Origin: an uncultured Alphaproteobacteria bacterium
GTDB taxonomy: Bacteria; Pseudomonadota; Alphaproteobacteria; RF32; CAG-239
Direction: 5' to 3'
Assembly (NCBI GenBank): GCA_944391335.1
Contig: CALXTF010000002.1
Coordinates: forward strand, 11,801 to 75,800
DNA length: 64,000 nt
In this document: positions 1 through 56,657 of the stretch, one piece after another
Layout: each line of letters opens with the position of its first letter
Position numbering within the stretch: position 1 is the first letter of the stretch
Made by a program: the position numbers and the translations under genes
The notes under the pieces: generated by a model
Database searches by the model: none
Seen by the model: only the letters and a program-made list of their open reading frames with translations
Told to the model about the DNA's origin: nothing

Positions 1-115
1 AATGAAAAGATATTTGCAAATATTTTTTGAATAGTTTTGCATAGTTATTTACATAGACTTGACAAACAAGAGAAAATGATAAAAGTTATAAGCAGTTTTG
101 ATAATTTAATTTTAG

Positions 116-50819: not shown

Positions 50820-52031
50820 ATGATTGAATATAAAACAATGAAAGATTTGGGCGATTTGCATGGCAAGGTTGTTATGCTTCGCGCAGACTTAAACGTTCCG
50901 ATGGATGAAAATTTCCACGTTACCAATACTGCCCGTATCGACCGCACGGTTCCCACTATCAAAGCGTTAATGGAAAAAGGAGCTAAAGTTGTCGTTATCA
51001 GCCACTTTGGTCGTCCTGAAGGCAAAGGTGATATGAAGAATTCTCTCTCGCACATTGTCGCCGATCTGGAAAAAGCTCTAGGCAAAAAAGTTGTGTTTGT
51101 TGACGACTGCATCGGTGAAAAAGTAGAGCAAGCCGTAAAAGCTATGAGCAATGACGAAATTTTACTGCTTGAAAATCTGCGTTTCTACAATGAAGAAAAG
51201 AAAGGCGACGAAGCTTTTGCCAAAGAATTGGTTAAAGTTGCCGATGTTTATGTATCGGATGCCTTTTCAACCGCTCACCGCGCACACGCTTCCATGGTAG
51301 CCGCGGTTAAAGAAAGACCTTCTGCCATGGGATTGCTGATGGAAGAAGAGGTTAATGCCTTGTCCAAAGGATTGAATGATCCCCAACGTCCGTTGATGGC
51401 AATTGTCGGCGGTTCAAAAGTTTCTACCAAGCTCGACTTGCTCAACAACTTGGTTAAAAAAGTTGACAAATTGGTTATCTCCGGCGGTATGGCTCATACC
51501 TTTATGAAAGCCAGCGGTATTGATACCGTAAACGAAGCTAACTCTTTGGTTCAAATGGATATGATTGACACCGCCAAAGAAATTATGGCAACCGCCAAAG
51601 CCAACAACTGCGAAATCATTTTGCCTTTAGACGTTGTTGTTGCTAAGGAATTTAAGGCAGAAGCCGAACACATGACTGTTGATTTGGAACACATTCCGGC
51701 TGAAGGTTGGAGCTTGATGGATGTCGGCGAAAAAACCATTGCCGCCATCAATGCCAAATTGGACGAATGCAAAACTTTGGTTTGGAACGGCCCCTTAGGT
51801 GTATTTGAAATGAAGCCGTTTGACAATGCCACCAATCAAGTTGCTGCTCACGCTGCCGAATTAACTCAAGCAGGCAAACTGACAAGTGTTGCCGGCGGCG
51901 GTGATACCGTTTCCGCTTTGGCCAATGCCGGTGTTGAAAAGAAATTTTCTTACATCTCAACGGCCGGCGGTGCATTCCTCGAATGGATGGAAGGCAAAGA
52001 ACTCCCCGGTGTTGTTGTTTTGAAAAAATAA
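50820..52031 (+). CDS. pgk: Phosphoglycerate kinase
   Basis: LRADLNVP, ISHFGRPEG, and a C-terminal STAGGAFLEWMEGKELPGV. Confidence 0.95.
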   Translation: MIEYKTMKDLGDLHGKVVMLRADLNVPMDENFHVTNTARIDRTVPTIKALMEKGAKVVVISHFGRPEGKGDMKNSLSHIVADLEKALGKKVVFVDDCIGEKVEQAVKAMSNDEILLLENLRFYNEEKKGDEAFAKELVKVADVYVSDAFSTAHRAHASMVAAVKERPSAMGLLMEEEVNALSKGLNDPQRPLMAIVGGSKVSTKLDLLNNLVKKVDKLVISGGMAHTFMKASGIDTVNEANSLVQMDMIDTAKEIMATAKANNCEIILPLDVVVAKEFKAEAEHMTVDLEHIPAEGWSLMDVGEKTIAAINAKLDECKTLVWNGPLGVFEMKPFDNATNQVAAHAAELTQAGKLTSVAGGGDTVSALANAGVEKKFSYISTAGGAFLEWMEGKELPGVVVLKK

Positions 52032-52176: not shown

Positions 52177-52896
52177 ATGAGCAACGGCAATTTACCTTTT
52201 GAAACTGCAAAATATTTAATTTTGGGCGAAGGCAACAAAGTTAAAAATTTAAGAACGCTAAAAAGACTCACGCTTTCGGAATTGGCGCAGTCTGCAGCTA
52301 TTCCCGAAGAAAGATTAAAATCAATCGAGTGTCAAAAAACAGAATTGATAGATATTGACTTATGCCAAATTGCCAACGCTTTAAATGTTGATACCGAATT
52401 ATTGTTAGATTCGTCAATATGTATGGATAATCAAGATATGTATTGGCTGAGAAGCATTTTACAAAATCATAAAACCGAAACAAACTTTTCACGATTGCAA
52501 ACACAAATAACAAATTTAATACATATTATTTTATATAAAAACCGAGAACAATGGAGTGAAATGCGCAAAGATTCAATTGTCGCCTTATGTAAATGCGAAA
52601 GAAAAGATTGTGCCCGTAAAGCCAGAAAATCAAGAGATGAAAAATATGCGCCGTTTAGGGAACATTTCAAACAAACACAATATGAAAAATTTATGCAATA
52701 TCAACAAGAAGGCAAAATATTATCTGCCAACTTTTTTGCCAAGTGGTATTTGACACATAAATCCGAAGAAATGCCAATTCCTTATGCCAAACAAAACATT
52801 GCCAACAAATTAGCGCAATTGGCACAAAAGAATAATCGCGAATTCAAAGAACTTCTATGCGTAAAAGCTGATACCTCTATCGTTACGGATAATTGA
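52177..52896 (+). CDS. XRE-family HTH protein with an unknown C-terminal domain
   Basis: LRTLKRLTLSELAQSAAIPEERLKSIECQKTELIDIDLCQIANALNV (HTH_3-like). AAGGAG RBS. Confidence 0.8.
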   Translation: MSNGNLPFETAKYLILGEGNKVKNLRTLKRLTLSELAQSAAIPEERLKSIECQKTELIDIDLCQIANALNVDTELLLDSSICMDNQDMYWLRSILQNHKTETNFSRLQTQITNLIHIILYKNREQWSEMRKDSIVALCKCERKDCARKARKSRDEKYAPFREHFKQTQYEKFMQYQQEGKILSANFFAKWYLTHKSEEMPIPYAKQNIANKLAQLAQKNNREFKELLCVKADTSIVTDN

Positions 52897-52956
52897 TTTT
52901 TATGCGAAATTTTTTAAAATTTATATTTCTGATATTAATCACAAAGGAGAAGAAAT

Positions 52957-53805
52957 ATGGATTTGGAAACATACAAAAGAAAATTATTGGAAGACGATGA
53001 ACGCAAGAATTTAGCCGAATTGCAAAAAAAATATAGCGGAAAGGTAACGCCCAATTACGCTGATATGAGCTTGCGAGAAGAGTTGGAAACAAGATTTGAC
53101 TTAAACGAACTCAACGACCTGCAGCAAAAGTACGGAGAGCAACAAACACAAACAACTTCAACACCGTATAGCCAACCGAGCGCACCTCAACAACCCAATC
53201 CGCAACCGTCAACTTGGGATAATGCTTTGCGCAAAACAGAACAACTGGCAACCGGAGCTTTAGACGGATTTAGCCTCGGTTGGTTTGATGAATTAGAAGG
53301 TCTGGCAAGTGCCGCCGGTTACGGATTGGCCAGCCTAAATCCCAAATGGAACAAGACCAACGAAAGTGTCTGGGACGCAATGAAACGCGGCTATGTTAAC
53401 GGTCGCGACAATCGGCGTCAGGTTTTGGCTCAAGGTCTTCAAGAAAATCCGGCAGCGACAACGCTGGCACAAATGGCGGGGGCTGTGTCATCTCCGATTA
53501 ACCTTTTTAGATATTCCAAAGCAACGCCTTTAAGAATTAAAAATATTCTCAACAAAAAAAATGCCATCACAAACGGCGTAATTTATGGTTTTGGCTCAGG
53601 GCAGAATGATTGGCAAAATTATGCTCAACAAATCGGAACTGGTTTAGCGGGAAATGTGCTAGGGAATCAATCGGCAATAAAACACTTTGGTCCGGCTGCC
53701 AATCCGTTAACAAGAAACATATTTAGTGAAATAAGCAGTCAAGGTACTGACTATCTTGTTGACGGAATAAAAAATTGGTATCATAATTATACAAATAATA
53801 ATTAA
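52957..53805 (+). CDS. Hypothetical protein: helical N-terminus, Q/P/T-rich linker, Gly-rich C-terminal domain
   Basis: AAGGAG RBS. No signal peptide. Linker QTQTTSTPYSQPSAPQQPNPQPS. C-terminal ATGALDGFSLGWFDELEGLASAAGYGLASL and GTGLAGNVLGN glycine-zipper-like stretches. Confidence 0.75.
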   Translation: MDLETYKRKLLEDDERKNLAELQKKYSGKVTPNYADMSLREELETRFDLNELNDLQQKYGEQQTQTTSTPYSQPSAPQQPNPQPSTWDNALRKTEQLATGALDGFSLGWFDELEGLASAAGYGLASLNPKWNKTNESVWDAMKRGYVNGRDNRRQVLAQGLQENPAATTLAQMAGAVSSPINLFRYSKATPLRIKNILNKKNAITNGVIYGFGSGQNDWQNYAQQIGTGLAGNVLGNQSAIKHFGPAANPLTRNIFSEISSQGTDYLVDGIKNWYHNYTNNN

Positions 53806-53821
53806 TAAGAAAGGGACGGCG

Positions 53822-54112
53822 ATGTTTAAGGTAAATATGATGTCAATAATAAAAGTAATTTCAACTATTTTTTTTGTTTTTTTAGGTTACTTTGCCATCT
53901 ATTCAATGGCTAAATCCCAAGCATCGCTGATTCCTGGTTATATATGTATTTTTATGTTGATTGTTATTGATTGGGCAATCGATTATATTTTGATCAAAAA
54001 AGGAAAAGAAAACTCACCATACTTTGATCCGGAACATCATTGGAAATATAGTCAGCTGATAGGTATCGTTGATTGCCTGATTGTCATAATAATGTACCGC
54101 TATTTATTATAA
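53822..54112 (+). CDS. 96-aa three-TM membrane protein, paralog 1
   Basis: AAGGGA RBS. Nearly identical to the copies at 54154 and 54486 apart from patches in TM1 and TM2. Confidence 0.75.
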   Translation: MFKVNMMSIIKVISTIFFVFLGYFAIYSMAKSQASLIPGYICIFMLIVIDWAIDYILIKKGKENSPYFDPEHHWKYSQLIGIVDCLIVIIMYRYLL

Positions 54113-54153
54113 CCACCTTGTTGACGGAATAAATTAATAAGAAAGGAACGGCG

Positions 54154-54444
54154 ATGTTTAAGGTAAATATGATGTCAATAATAAAAGTAATTTCAGCTAT
54201 TTTTTGTGTTTTTTTAGGTTGTATTGCTGTCTATTCAATGGCTAAATCCCAAGCATCGCTGATTCCTGGTTATATATGTATTTTTATGTTATGTATTGAT
54301 GATACAGTAATCTCTCATATCTTAATAAAAAAAGGAAAAGAAAACTCACCATACTTTGATCCGGAACATCATTGGAAATATAGTCAGCTGATAGGTATCG
54401 TTGATTGCCTGATTGTCATAATAATGTACCGCTATTTATTATAA
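54154..54444 (+). CDS. 96-aa three-TM membrane protein, paralog 2
   Basis: Same frame and length. Diverged block CIDDTVISHILI versus IVIDWAIDYILI. Confidence 0.75.
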   Translation: MFKVNMMSIIKVISAIFCVFLGCIAVYSMAKSQASLIPGYICIFMLCIDDTVISHILIKKGKENSPYFDPEHHWKYSQLIGIVDCLIVIIMYRYLL

Positions 54445-54485
54445 CCACCTTGTTGACGGAATAAATTAATAAGAAAGGGACGGCG

Positions 54486-54776
54486 ATGTTTAAGGTAAAT
54501 ATGATGTCAATAATAAAATTTATTTCATCCATTTTTGGGCTTTTTTTAGGTTACTTTGTCATCTATTCAATGGCTAAATCCCAAGCATCGCTGATTCCTG
54601 GTTATATATGTATTTTTATGTTGATTGTTATTGATTGGGCAATCGATTATATTTTGATCAAAAAAGGAAAAGAAAACTCACCATACTTTGATCCGGAACA
54701 TCATTGGAAATATAGTCACCTGATAGGTATCATTGATTTCCTGATTGTCATAATAATGTACCGCTATTTATTATAA
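54486..54776 (+). CDS. 96-aa three-TM membrane protein, paralog 3
   Basis: Same frame and length. Diverged N-terminal TM (KFISSIFGLFLGYFVIY) and a few C-terminal changes. Confidence 0.75.
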   Translation: MFKVNMMSIIKFISSIFGLFLGYFVIYSMAKSQASLIPGYICIFMLIVIDWAIDYILIKKGKENSPYFDPEHHWKYSHLIGIIDFLIVIIMYRYLL

Positions 54777-54796
54777 CCACCTTGTTAACGGAATAA

Positions 54797-55069
54797 ATGA
54801 TGAATATTAATTTAAATAAAATTTCTCAATATCTGCGAAAGACTTTAAAAGGACTGTTTCTTATTGTCGGATGGTTTATAATTGCCATAATATGTTATGC
54901 AGTTTATTTGGCAATGGATGAAAAAGGTCGGTGTTTGAGCGAAGGGCACGGTGTTTGGGATGCCGATAGGCGTGAATGCAGACAAGATTGTCTGACCTGG
55001 CGTGAGGATATCGGCTGTGTTCCGATAACCAAAGAAAACATCATAAAAAAAGAAAAAGGGGTATTATAA
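54797..55069 (+). CDS. Small single-TM protein with a 4-Cys C-terminal domain (90 aa)
   Basis: TM GLFLIVGWFIIAIICYAVYLA followed by CLSEGHG...ECRQDCLTWREDIGC. The start codon overlaps the fourth copy of the relic motif. Confidence 0.55.
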   Translation: MMNINLNKISQYLRKTLKGLFLIVGWFIIAIICYAVYLAMDEKGRCLSEGHGVWDADRRECRQDCLTWREDIGCVPITKENIIKKEKGVL

Positions 55070-55121
55070 ACCTAAAAATTCCCTCGGTTAAACCCAAAAG
55101 ATTTTTGCAGCTATATTTTTC

Positions 55122-55150
55122 TTGCACGTTCACAAAATATTCTTTAATAT
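55122..55150 (+). promoter_or_regulatory. Promoter-like hexamers of ncRNA unit 1
   Basis: TTGCAC, 17 nt, TAATAT. Confidence 0.35.
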
Positions 55151-55320
55151 CACGCTTGCCCCCGAGAGATCGGAGGCGGAGTGTGACAACTCCTATCGCA
55201 AAAAAGAACAACTCCTACCAAGAGGGAGCTGGGGAAATAAGGCTATGCTCGAATACCCCAGACTGTTCTGCGATCAGTTGTCAACTCCCTCGCCTTGTTT
55301 TTTCAGGGCGAATTTTTTTT
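55151..55320 (+). ncRNA. Structured ncRNA, tandem unit 1 (most degenerate copy)
   Basis: 5' hairpin, long-range helix TGACAACT (55184-91) with AGTTGTCA (55276-83), helix ATCGCA/TGCGAT, two internal hairpins, then a terminator hairpin plus T9. Has mismatches in the 5' hairpin and in the terminator stem. The 5' end is not defined. Confidence 0.55.
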
Positions 55321-55367
55321 AACCGAAACAAACAAAATTTAAAAGGGAAAGTATATTACAAAAACGC

Positions 55368-55396
55368 TTGCAAAATCTGCAACATTTTTCTAATAT
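55368..55396 (+). promoter_or_regulatory. Promoter-like hexamers of ncRNA unit 2
   Basis: TTGCAA, 17 nt, TAATAT. Confidence 0.4.
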
Positions 55397-55568
55397 CACT
55401 CTTGCCTCCGAGAGATCGGAGGCGGAGTGTGACAACTCCTTTTACACAAAATAATCCCTATTGAGGGAGATACCGAAATAAGCCGTTTTTGCGGACGAAT
55501 AAGGTATGCTGTCTGTGTAAGCAGTTGTCAACTCCCTCGCCTTGTTTTTTCAGGGCGAGTTTTGTTTT
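55397..55568 (+). ncRNA. Structured ncRNA, tandem unit 2 (variant core)
   Basis: Same 5' hairpin (gcctccg/cggaggc), same P2 helix (55430-37 with 55523-30) and same terminator. The core sequence differs but keeps the architecture: TTACACA/TGTGTAA replaces ATCGCA/TGCGAT, and there are still two internal hairpins. Confidence 0.62.
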
Positions 55569-55615
55569 AACCGAAACAAACAAAATTTAAAAGGGAAAGT
55601 ATATTACAAAAACGC

Positions 55616-55644
55616 TTGCAAAATCTGCAACATTTTTCTAATAT
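55616..55644 (+). promoter_or_regulatory. Promoter-like hexamers of ncRNA unit 3
   Basis: TTGCAA, 17 nt, TAATAT. Confidence 0.4.
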
Positions 55645-55817
55645 CACTCTTGCCTCCAAGAGATCGGAGGCGGAGTGTCGCAGCTCCTATCGCAAAATAA
55701 AGAACAACTCCTACCAAGAGGGAGCTGGGGAAATAAGGCTATGCTCGAATAACCCAGACTGTTCTGCGATCAGTTGCGAACTCCCTCGCCTTGTTTTTTC
55801 AGGGCGAGTTTTGTTTT
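55645..55817 (+). ncRNA. Structured ncRNA, tandem unit 3
   Basis: Core like unit 1. The P2 helix is TCGCAGCT (55678-85) with AGTTGCGA (55772-79), which gives two fully compensatory pair swaps plus one G-U relative to units 1 and 2. Terminator ctcgcc/ggcgag plus TTTTGTTTT. Confidence 0.62.
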
Positions 55818-55842
55818 AACCGAAATACAGGGAGTTATTCAA

Positions 55843-56094
55843 ATGTTTTTAAAAAAACAAATCAAACGACAACTAGGCGAGATTCTACGCGAATATCGCT
55901 GTTCACATCATCTAACAATCAGTACAATTTCCAAACAAAGCGGTCTCAACTGCCAACAAATAGATACCCTAGAAATTGGTTCATTAAAGACTTGGAATAT
56001 ATATGAAAAATTACTCAATTGTTATAATAAAAGAATAAAAATTGAATTAATAGAAGATAGAAAAGAGATAACTGTTGAAAGAGAATCCTCTTAA
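55843..56094 (+). CDS. Small XRE-like HTH protein (83 aa)
   Basis: GGGAG RBS 7 nt upstream of the ATG at 55843. LGEILREYRCSHHLTISTISKQSGLNCQQIDTLEIG resembles HTH_3. The upstream part of the track ORF lies in the ncRNA terminator and was trimmed. Confidence 0.7.
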   Translation: MFLKKQIKRQLGEILREYRCSHHLTISTISKQSGLNCQQIDTLEIGSLKTWNIYEKLLNCYNKRIKIELIEDRKEITVERESS

Positions 56095-56198: not shown

Positions 56199-56657
56199 TT
56201 ATGCTTCGATAATATTAACTTTTCCACCAGCTTTTTCAACTGCGGCGACAGCAGCTTTAGAAGCCGAATTTACGGAAATAGTGACAGCCGTTGTCACTGC
56301 ACCGCGAGCAAGCAAACGAACGCCATCATAAGTTTTAGTAATAATTCCGGCTTGAGCCAGAGTATCTAAATCAATAGCATTAGCTTTTAACTTACCGGCA
56401 TCAATAGCAGTTTGCAAAGTATCAAGATTGACGATAGCAAAAACTTTTGCGAACGGATTTTTAAAACCACGTTTTGGAAGTCTACGATAAATAGGCATCT
56501 GTCCACCTTCAAAGGCGTTAATAGCCACACCGCTGCGTGCTTTTTGACCTTTTTGTCCGTGTCCGGATGTTTTACCTTTACCGCTACCGATACCACGTCC
56601 GACTCTAATTCTGTTTTTTGTTGCGCCGCAATTGTCTTTCAATTCATTAAGTTTCAT
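56199..56657 (-). CDS. rplO: 50S ribosomal protein L15
   Basis: [34 protein letters not shown]. Confidence 0.95.

Follow-up and report, generated by a model that had tools for sequence, protein, structure and literature searches.

A candidate riboswitch-like leader RNA upstream of small XRE regulator genes in gut Alphaproteobacteria

A 64,000-nucleotide stretch of contig CALXTF010000002.1 (GenBank assembly GCA_944391335.1) from an uncultured alphaproteobacterium, hereafter the window, contains three head-to-tail copies of a structured RNA element at positions 55100-55843 of the plus strand, with a repeat period of 246-248 bp evident on inspection of the sequence. Directly after the third copy lies a gene for an 83-aa helix-turn-helix (HTH) protein of the XRE/Cro-C1 type. 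The reading we favor, with a probability of roughly 0.65, is that the element represents a previously undescribed, riboswitch-like 5' leader RNA that would control paralogous small XRE regulator genes at two levels. By kind it is, judging from comparative sequence data, a structured cis-regulatory leader (a riboswitch-like attenuator), with an unusual target class and a well-documented multi-partner switch. An earlier note on this DNA had taken the units for stand-alone, AbcR-like small RNA (sRNA) paralogs merely lying beside a regulator gene; comparison across genomes does not support this view as it stands, the RNA being the obligate 5' leader of the small XRE gene.

Homologues and their distribution

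Homologues were collected as two sets that complement each other, different motifs being required in each. An exact motif pattern (GGAGUGU, CUCCU, AUAAG and CGAAUA all required), derived from three further copies with compensatory changes that blastn had found on a human-faecal scaffold, was run on GTDB genomes and gave at least 119 stretches (the genome set); a second pattern, limited to the loop of helix P5 (see below), gave at least 120 stretches from metagenome contigs, mostly of the human gut (the metagenome set). Searches of the fetched DNA with nhmmer and covariance models found at least 153 copies in the genome set and at least 139 in the metagenome set, for a total of more than 290.

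Among the matches listed, nearly all genome stretches come from metagenome-assembled genomes of gut or faecal Alphaproteobacteria, from human, chicken, deer and mouse, with labels such as 'Azospirillum sp.', 'Candidatus Scatocola' and 'Alphaproteobacteria bacterium'. Carriers generally have at least 4-9 loci per genome (at least 9 in JAHALQ01 and MNTV01, at least 6 in CAAFGZ01, at least 5 in DVOM01). Arrays with 2-4 RNA copies make up 18 of 116 arrays in the metagenome loci (about 15% of loci) and are found in several lineages, again among the matches listed. Some are mixed, containing both of the two RNA types distinguished below: types A and B together in locus L042, and the order B, B, B, A in L089. 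Strains of the species represented in the window differ in this respect, with three units in L122, L123 and L125 and one in L124.

No match to the array was found among plasmids by blastn. The lone phage match, MT835910.1 (listed in INPHARED as 'Bacteriophage sp.', UNVERIFIED; L001), is the human-faecal scaffold mentioned above and does not count as phage evidence: this 15.6-kb sequence encodes RluC-like, RarA/MgsA-like, RecX-like and pentapeptide-repeat proteins along with the RNA array, and from this content looks like an alphaproteobacterial contig misfiled as viral. A pattern scan of viral contigs gave a single match, attributable to chance.

Association with small XRE genes

Among the matches listed, the RNA is followed in the genome loci by an HTH gene in 106 cases, by another RNA in 13, by a contig end in 17 and by neither in 7; the corresponding numbers for the metagenome loci are 94, 10, 29 and 6. 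About 95% of evaluable copies are directly upstream of a small XRE/Cro-type gene or of another RNA copy. The association also holds in the other direction, 96 of the 105 HTH-family open reading frames (ORFs) in genome loci having an RNA at most 400 nt upstream and three of the other nine lying at contig ends. Where an HTH ORF has no RNA upstream, it proved to be either the second gene of a two-gene HTH operon or a generic XRE gene, and the apparent orphan RNAs mostly have decayed HTH genes or MITE-like (miniature inverted-repeat transposable element-like) insertions downstream.

The downstream ORF starts about 25-35 nt past the terminator, behind a UAAGGAGUU ribosome-binding site, and encodes 72-85 aa (in some cases 110-130 aa) with the C-terminal end ...FYxKKIKIELVD. 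The gene after it is usually on the opposite strand. Conserved neighbors other than the HTH gene (toxins, integrases, reverse transcriptases) were sought in the loci and none was found; since no other neighbor is conserved, the inherited unit would seem to consist of promoter, RNA, terminator, Shine-Dalgarno (SD) sequence and small XRE gene, dispersed to many chromosomal sites.

By sequence and profile comparison, the downstream proteins are XRE/Cro-C1 HTH proteins. In the family alignment (A3), Pfam HTH_31 is recognized in 26 of 40 members and HTH_3 in 17 of 40; the 83-aa protein of the window, searched alone, had no Pfam match. The family profile matches the PDB structures DdrOC (7.5e-10, best, with C.BclI), C.BclI, SinR and HipB, and an AlphaFold2 model of the 83-aa protein has four helices and a conserved unstructured C-terminal tail (predicted local distance difference test score, pLDDT, 83). 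A homologue search with the single 83-aa protein returned only itself; the same search with the family alignment returned 77 close family members, with uninformative names.

Some loci depart from the usual arrangement. One RNA is followed by two tandem HTH paralogs, the 120-aa type and then a second, in L107 (757-1354, minus strand) and L082 (398-~830, minus strand), forming a two-gene operon. In L026 (5342-5767, plus strand) a full-length RNA precedes a 72-aa ORF (MTETQTFYNDIPSNTDLTHKRLRYLICQ...) outside the HTH profile, the sole candidate for a different downstream gene. MITE-like elements are found between the terminator or A-tract and the HTH gene's SD in L025, L102, L029 and L045 (a GC-rich insert of about 170 nt) and, at the same site, in L082 and L072 (a MITE-like GTCATCCTCGG...CCGAGAATGAC element); the insert in L025 and L102 is flanked by a repeat of the GTGAGTTTGTTTTTT segment.

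The conserved fold

The three units of the window share a common fold. P1, a 20-nt hairpin, is followed by an interrupted helix (P2, an internal loop and P3) closing a three-way junction with P4, a short hairpin, and P5, a longer one with a symmetric purine-rich internal loop, (G)AAAUAAG / CGAAUA(A), in all three; each unit is closed by a GC-rich hairpin and U run, scored as an intrinsic terminator. Minimum free energies (MFE) are -69.1 kcal/mol for unit 1 (z-score -5.97 against dinucleotide shuffles), -73.0 for unit 2 (-8.02) and -70.5 for unit 3 (-5.97). A covariance model built from the homologues recognizes the units at 152-161 bits (E 1e-44 to 1e-46 in the 64-kb window), and found no further RNA copy in the window. 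Its one additional match there, at 1417-1501 on the minus strand (14.3 bits, E 0.008), was rejected as an ordinary, unrelated intrinsic terminator, ACUACUCC-UUUUAU-GGAGUAGU plus a U run.

All the sequence features that the earlier note had listed for the array could be verified. The promoter hexamers, 5' hairpin, P2, three-way junction, purine-rich P5 loop and terminators are all where it had placed them; units 1 and 3 do differ by a 2-nt indel; P2 does change from TGACAACT/AGTTGTCA in units 1 and 2 to TCGCAGCT/AGTTGCGA in unit 3; and unit 2 does have a different core sequence with the same architecture. Its proposal of a common fold backed by compensatory changes is borne out by an alignment of 84 non-redundant homologues (A2), for which RNAalifold gives a consensus of 37 pairs; compensatory double changes are seen in 24. 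Consensus cells are paired in 93.5% of cases, versus 75.8% in shuffles and 36-56% with slid partners, and the observed covariation was reached by none of 500 shuffles; it supports P1-P5 and the terminator. P3 is misaligned by MAFFT and was hence checked separately: with 71 different 5' strands among 84 distinct strand pairs, 5.93 of 6 positions are paired, against 4.10 +/- 0.08 with permuted partners.

P5 has an apical part of variable length (6-31 nt). Unpaired parts that are conserved, a property in part built in by the search patterns, include the P5 internal loop, the J2/3 loop (UCC/CA), the A-rich J3/4 and GACUG.

An abundant variant, type B, has GGUGU-CUNAAAAAC-AUCU in place of GGAGUGU-N5-CUCCU, AGCUCC at the 3' base of P2 (element z below) and GGAGCU as the SD. 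It is seen at L089 (2386-3042), L042 (3418-3587) and many of L129-L248 (e.g., L181, L197 and L154), lies ahead of genes from the same HTH family, and can stand in one array with type A. The apical part of P5 is absent in some type B RNAs, leaving the loop GUAAUAUAUUGAAUAA.

Some other copies are interrupted. In one group the RNA is cut at a single point, after CAGU of the P2 3' strand, and continues with foreign TCTTCACTTAAGCATCTAAATTCGCCGCGG... (L001, 7758-8040; L121, 6908-7044; L087, L120, L044, L136, L190, L211, L131 and L225); in L001 this insert is about 105 nt long, after which the terminator resumes. A second group (L008, L026, L229) continues with TCTTGCTGCGTAGGTTTCGCGC. From their sequences, both are probably inherited insertions inactivating the RNA copy.

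The earlier note had matched the RNA to no family, and none was found by cmscan against Rfam 15 at gathering or permissive thresholds, with alpha-r15 (AbcR), alpha-r14, glycine, ykkC, TPP, c-di-GMP, SAM-II and fluoride among the families covered. At gathering thresholds the whole window yielded two tRNAs only; at E<=10, positions 54900-56000 yielded only sub-threshold, chance-level matches, with no alpha-r family among them. A description of this RNA was also sought in the literature and not found. In a catalogue of candidate structured RNAs from the human microbiome (PMC8040213), HTH_XRE is the second most frequent neighbor domain of novel candidates; the RNA was not located in the part of its supplements covered here, and the family may be hidden in such candidate catalogues.

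Alternative pairings

Besides its native helices, the RNA contains two sets of complementary elements that could exchange partners. Three are of GGAG type: a, after P1; b, the 3' strand of P4; and c, the SD of the HTH gene. Three are of CUCC type: x, in the P2/P3 internal loop; y, the 5' strand of P4; and z, running from the 3' end of P2 into the terminator. The CAACUCC motifs in the earlier note correspond to these: their identification as genuine anti-SD elements stands, while the idea that the RNA displays them does not, since they are base-paired in the stable fold.

The 7-bp helix of b with z is 96.1% paired in A2 (slid controls, 53-62%), a level equaled by none of 500 shuffles. One pair changes from A-U to G-C (31 versus 51 sequences, none unpaired) and another from G-C to A-U. 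Seven or more covarying variants occur; those in the pattern-independent set include GAGGGAG/CUCCCUC, GGGGAG/CUCCCC, GGGGGAG/CUCCCCC, GGAGGAG/CUCCUCC, GGAAGGAG/CUCCUUCC, GGUGGAG/CUCCACC and GGCGGAG/CUCCGCC, with y changing in step; the mean is 6.81 contiguous pairs, versus 5.17 +/- 0.14 with permuted partners. As z comprises the last nucleotides of the P2 base and the bottom 2-3 nt of the terminator 5' strand, beside the U tract, b:z is a credible antiterminator, of which b would be the 5' strand. It overlaps both the terminator base and the P2 base and shares strand b with P4, making it mutually exclusive with these.

In the MFE fold a is paired with z, at the base of P2, and this pairing is invariant. 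In type B, GGAG:CUCC of a:x becomes GGUG:CAUC (A-U in 56 sequences, U-A in 37; 98.3% paired), a change that introduces a U.U mismatch into a:z. Since a:x covaries even while breaking a:z, a local a:x hairpin, exclusive with P2, would also seem to be under selection.

The remaining partner is the SD itself. It reads on as GGAGUU in 81 of about 100 modules, versus 8.8% of the GGAG-type SDs that other genes have at these loci, and it covaries with z: AA-CUCC occurs with GGAG-UU in 108 of 121 cases, and AG-CUCC (type B) with GGAG-CU in 17 of 23 and with GGAG-UU (G.U) in 5 of 23. The SD triplets upstream of GGAG showed no covariation with the 3' part of z; the covariation is on the 3' side of GGAG instead. 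The U tract of the terminator and an A-tract directly upstream of the SD covary as well (UUUUGUUUU with AAAACAAAA in 74 cases, UUUCUUUU with AAGAAA or GAAAC in 22, mismatched in 3). A hairpin between them would place the SD beside z and give a junction made up of z:SD, the terminator and the U/A hairpin; ViennaRNA predicts such a junction for L005.

Promoters

Of 126 distinct upstream regions, 107 have a TTGNNN-16..18-TANNNT arrangement whose end lies 25-34 nt (mode 27-28) ahead of GGAGUGU; the same arrangement occurs in 46 of 2000 random 90-mers (2.3%). From this fixed distance, the RNA is predicted to start 0-3 nt before P1. It sits in the predicted 5' leader of the HTH gene, downstream of the promoter-like site. 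The earlier note had raised the caveat that an outermost cactc/gagtg pairing (P0) might put the 5' end in doubt; P0 is 61.1% paired versus 61.2% in shuffles, and the caveat is settled by this lack of conservation and by the position of the pairing upstream of the predicted transcription start.

An inverted repeat, TTGCA-AAATC-TGCAA, overlaps the -35 element in units 2 and 3 (55368-55382 and 55616-55630). Inverted repeats centered on the -35 recur in many loci (e.g., L007, L099 and L108), a perfect repeat with 6-nt arms being found in 22 of 164 promoters; the palindrome TTAATTGCAAATTAA is identical in modules of different genomes, and TTGCAAAATCTGCAA is a segment of module promoter DNA. To judge from its sequence and position, the -35 repeat may be an operator, either for autoregulation or for a shared regulator.

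A termination and translation switch?

Each unit would be a self-contained transcription unit with a sigma-70-type promoter, an RNA of about 165 nt starting at P1, and an intrinsic terminator. In the OFF state the core would be folded, P4 formed and the terminator complete, with most transcripts ending as the ~165-nt RNA; in those that read through, z could mask the SD. In the ON state b would capture z, so that the terminator base next to the U tract is lost and the SD released. The balance would probably be set by a common cellular effector (a small molecule, an ion or a conserved protein) acting at the conserved junction and P5 loop. As the RNA is far better conserved than the paralogous proteins (15-40% identity), a shared effector is favored over the cognate HTH protein.

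In the window, the 83-aa HTH gene would have unit 3 as its working leader. Downstream of units 1 and 2 there is only a decayed SD remnant, then the next promoter; on sequence evidence these two units are tandem duplicates of promoter, leader, terminator and SD remnant from which the ORF has been lost. Transcripts from unit 1 would face three terminators before reaching the gene, which suggests that the upstream units mainly add terminated RNA; they may also act as extra attenuators or decoys. The added RNA would be neutral if the effector is a small molecule, and meaningful (as a decoy or as a trans-acting anti-SD RNA) if it is titratable.

Several points weigh against this model. The promoters, the 5' and 3' ends and the read-through are all predictions from sequence. 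Collection by exact patterns means that the invariance of GGAGUGU, CUCCU, AUAAG and CGAAUA in A2, and of the P5 loop in the corresponding alignment A4, is partly by construction, and the covariation between types A and B may reflect few independent events. In ViennaRNA calculations the terminator fold is better than b:z by 12.2 +/- 3.3 kcal/mol in the terminated RNA and by 7.2 +/- 3.3 kcal/mol before the terminator 3' strand exists; for the read-through leader of unit 3 the values are -77.9 (MFE), -72.0 with z:SD forced (+5.9) and -66.3 with b:z forced (+11.6). With energies favoring the terminator fold, the ON state would require a stabilizing factor or a kinetic route. In type A, y also matches the SD, and it is ambiguous which CUCC masks the SD in which state. 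Finally, every duplicate keeps an intact promoter, which an element acting purely in cis would not need and which suits a role of the free RNA in dosage.

Riboswitches and other terminator-controlled leaders are the nearest relatives of the arrangement. They have in common with it a promoter-proximal structured domain with covarying helices and conserved junctions, a terminator directly downstream, an alternative helix that takes one of its strands from the structured domain and reaches into the terminator, and added masking of the SD; riboswitches too occur occasionally as tandem copies before one gene, as do the present RNAs, mixed type A and B arrays included (L042, L089). The differences are also considerable. 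This RNA precedes a single family of small XRE regulator genes rather than enzymes or transporters, its ligand is putative only, and the single-family context gives no metabolic clue to what such a ligand might be. There are 4-9 or more loci per genome, the duplicates keep their promoters, the energetics favor the terminator fold, and there is no match in Rfam 15. A bolder version of the leader model, which we put forward only tentatively, is that the RNA constitutes a new riboswitch class in which one small molecule or ion, probably relevant to the gut, gates 4-9 or more paralogous XRE factors per genome by means of the three-partner GGAG/CUCC exchange; type B would then possibly have an altered specificity.

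If the model is correct, this RNA would be among the better-supported orphan leader candidates, with more than 290 copies and with five covarying native helices in addition to the alternative pairings. It would control only small transcription factors, many per genome: one signal could switch a whole layer of regulators, with a riboswitch at the top of a transcription-factor regulon and antitermination coupled to release of the SD. The carriers are uncultured gut Alphaproteobacteria, almost unstudied, and the identity of the effector would reveal what they sense in the gut, as well as adding an aptamer or protein-binding RNA with a compact dual expression platform. More generally, apparent tandem sRNA genes in one window can be duplicated leaders, something visible only by comparative genomics.

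Other explanations

One possibility is that the RNA acts in trans, the terminated ~165-nt transcript using CUCC/AACUCC as anti-SD seeds on mRNAs, including those of the HTH family that share UAAGGAGUU, with the ORF-less units raising its dose. Its best argument is that no unit, ORF-less ones included, has lost its promoter or its terminator. Stable sRNAs typically have a hairpin at the 5' end and a terminator at the 3' end, several lineages have arrays of 2-4 copies, and y (AACUCCUU) is complementary to the family SD over 8-9 nt. The tandem alphaproteobacterial RNA genes AbcR1/AbcR2 (alpha-r15) and CcsR/'cuckoo' (alpha-r14) likewise have promoters, terminators and C/U-rich anti-SD motifs. AbcR and CcsR sRNAs expose these motifs in loops and, by way of Hfq, target many mRNAs. 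The present RNA has no match to them in sequence or structure; its CUCC elements are paired in a strongly favored fold (both MFE and consensus) and covary within the transcript, and the conserved single-stranded nucleotides sit in junctions and internal loops, with no seed-like stretch. It is almost never found apart from an HTH gene, or from an array ending in one, a tie to a single downstream family that AbcR and CcsR do not have. Covariation supports just one complementary target, the SD in cis, and a helix overlapping the terminator, z:SD covariation and a U/A hairpin make sense only within one transcript. We consider action in trans unlikely.

C4 antisense RNA of the phage P1/P7 immI region is also derived from a leader, with its complementary target, which includes a ribosome-binding site, further down the same transcript. 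The c4-a1b1 family gave the only near-match to the array in Rfam (18.5 bits versus a gathering threshold of 46.7, E 0.069) that covers only P1 and the a/x region, and was rejected on both score and context: there is no icd/ant-type operon and no prophage context, and there are many modules per genome.

A protein might be sensed instead of a small molecule, with the encoded HTH protein, or another, binding the P5 loop or junction in a ribonucleoprotein and feeding back on termination and translation; the ORF-less units would then titrate it. The one-to-one relation of RNA and gene would be natural in such a scheme, and decoy copies would make sense if the protein can be titrated. Conservation in the protein family is moreover highest in the basic C-terminal tail, FYxKKIKIELVD, outside the HTH and unstructured in the monomer model. 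These points are offset by the near-invariance of the RNA core across such divergent paralogs, and by tails that differ (AYKYHYKLKISFEKK, YYQLRVYAGF, LRYEKILNISW) with no matching changes in the RNA. XRE domains bind DNA, and Pfam and PDB profile searches detected no RNA-binding domain. Feedback by a bound protein is also improbable, and a leader responding to a shared effector is preferred.

The order of promoter, RNA (sometimes repeated), terminator limiting read-through, and small protein gene is formally that of toxI-toxN, and the modules are dispersed, many per genome, in unrelated contexts. Might this be a selfish module or a toxin-antitoxin system resembling type III, in which the RNA neutralizes the protein or the mRNA for it? 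What the gene encodes is an ordinary XRE HTH protein, not an endoribonuclease of the ToxN/CptN/TenpN type; the repeat is a complete transcription unit of 246-248 bp, rather than a processed repeat of 34-36 nt; most loci have a single RNA copy; and no conserved toxin-like partner gene is nearby. A ToxIN-like role is very improbable on these grounds. A non-functional repeat, of the repetitive extragenic palindromic (REP) or MITE-like kind, or a mis-called coding region, as might be suggested by the multiple hairpin-rich copies and the ORFs of 52-119 aa that overlap the units, can practically be dismissed: as the earlier note had rightly argued in calling these RNA elements rather than coding sequence, indels break every frame between units while helices are kept by compensatory changes despite sequence divergence, and in addition the position relative to promoter and HTH gene is fixed and the units are flanked by neither terminal inverted repeats nor target duplications.

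Layout of the array in the window

All features of the array are on the plus strand. The predicted promoter of unit 1 (55122-55150) has a -35 element TTGCAC at 55122-55127, a 17-nt spacer and a -10 element TAATAT at 55145-55150. The RNA of about 163 nt, with no ORF after it, runs from 55158 to 55320 (covariance model match 55146-55321, 152 bits). P1 is at 55158-55177, followed by element a (GGAGU, 55178-55182), upper P2 (55184-55190 with 55277-55283), element x (CUCCU, 55190-55194) and P3 (55195-55200 with 55269-55274). Element y, the P4 5' strand (CUCCU, 55212-55216), and element b (GAGGGAG, 55222-55228) precede P5 (55229-55234 with 55256-55261), whose internal loop is formed by AAAUAAG at 55235-55241 and CGAAUA at 55250-55255. 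Element z (ACUCCCUC, 55284-55291) leads into the terminator, placed at 55290-55311 by the terminator scan, and the U tract (55312-55320). The A-tract AAACAAACAAAA, complementary to this U tract, and then the decayed SD remnant AAAAGGGAAAG occupy 55326-55337.

Unit 2 has the divergent core. Its predicted promoter (55368-55396) consists of TTGCAA at 55368-55373, 17 nt and TAATAT at 55391-55396, and its RNA, about 165 nt and again followed by no ORF, extends over 55404-55568 (model match 55392-55568, 153.8 bits). The elements are P1 (55404-55423), a (55424-55428), upper P2 (55430-55436 with 55524-55530), x (55436-55440), P3 (55442-55448 with 55514-55520), y (55455-55459), b (55463-55469), P5 (55470-55474 with 55503-55507) with its loop GAAAUAAG (55475-55482) and CGAAUAA (55496-55502), z (55531-55538), the scanned terminator (55536-55559) and the U tract (55560-55568).

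Unit 3, the HTH gene's leader proper, has a predicted promoter at 55616-55644 (TTGCAA at 55616-55621, 17 nt, TAATAT at 55639-55644) and an RNA at 55652-55817 (model match 55640-55817, 160.8 bits). Here P1 is at 55652-55671, a at 55672-55676, upper P2 at 55678-55684 and 55773-55779, x at 55684-55688, P3 at 55689-55694 and 55765-55770, y at 55708-55712, b at 55718-55724, and P5 at 55725-55729 and 55753-55757, its loop again being GAAAUAAG (55730-55737) with CGAAUAA (55746-55752). Element z (55780-55787), the scanned terminator (55785-55808) and the U tract (55809-55817) are followed by the SD region of the HTH gene, GGGAGUU (55830-55836), which is complementary to the z segment AACUCCC at 55779-55785, and by the 83-aa XRE/Cro-C1-type ORF itself at 55843-56094.

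Genomic surroundings

Upstream of the array, positions 53800-54798 (plus strand) hold three tandem paralogous genes for predicted membrane proteins of 96 aa (53822-54112, 54154-54444 and 54486-54776), with a period of 332 bp, 92-96% identity between copies, and from 1 to 3 copies depending on the strain. A 282-aa ORF (52957-53805) precedes them and a 90-aa, Cys-containing ORF (54797-55069) follows. Pfam gave no informative match for the 282-aa, 96-aa or 90-aa proteins; by analogy, their layout resembles that of a secreted toxin or bacteriocin accompanied by an immunity-gene array. Together with a 239-aa HTH-like ORF, the RNA array and the 83-aa HTH gene, they form a block at 52177-56094 that looks like a strain-variable island. 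At its far end is rplO (56199-56657, minus strand), the end of a ribosomal-protein operon in which rplO is not followed by secY/adk, and at its near end is pgk (50820-52031).

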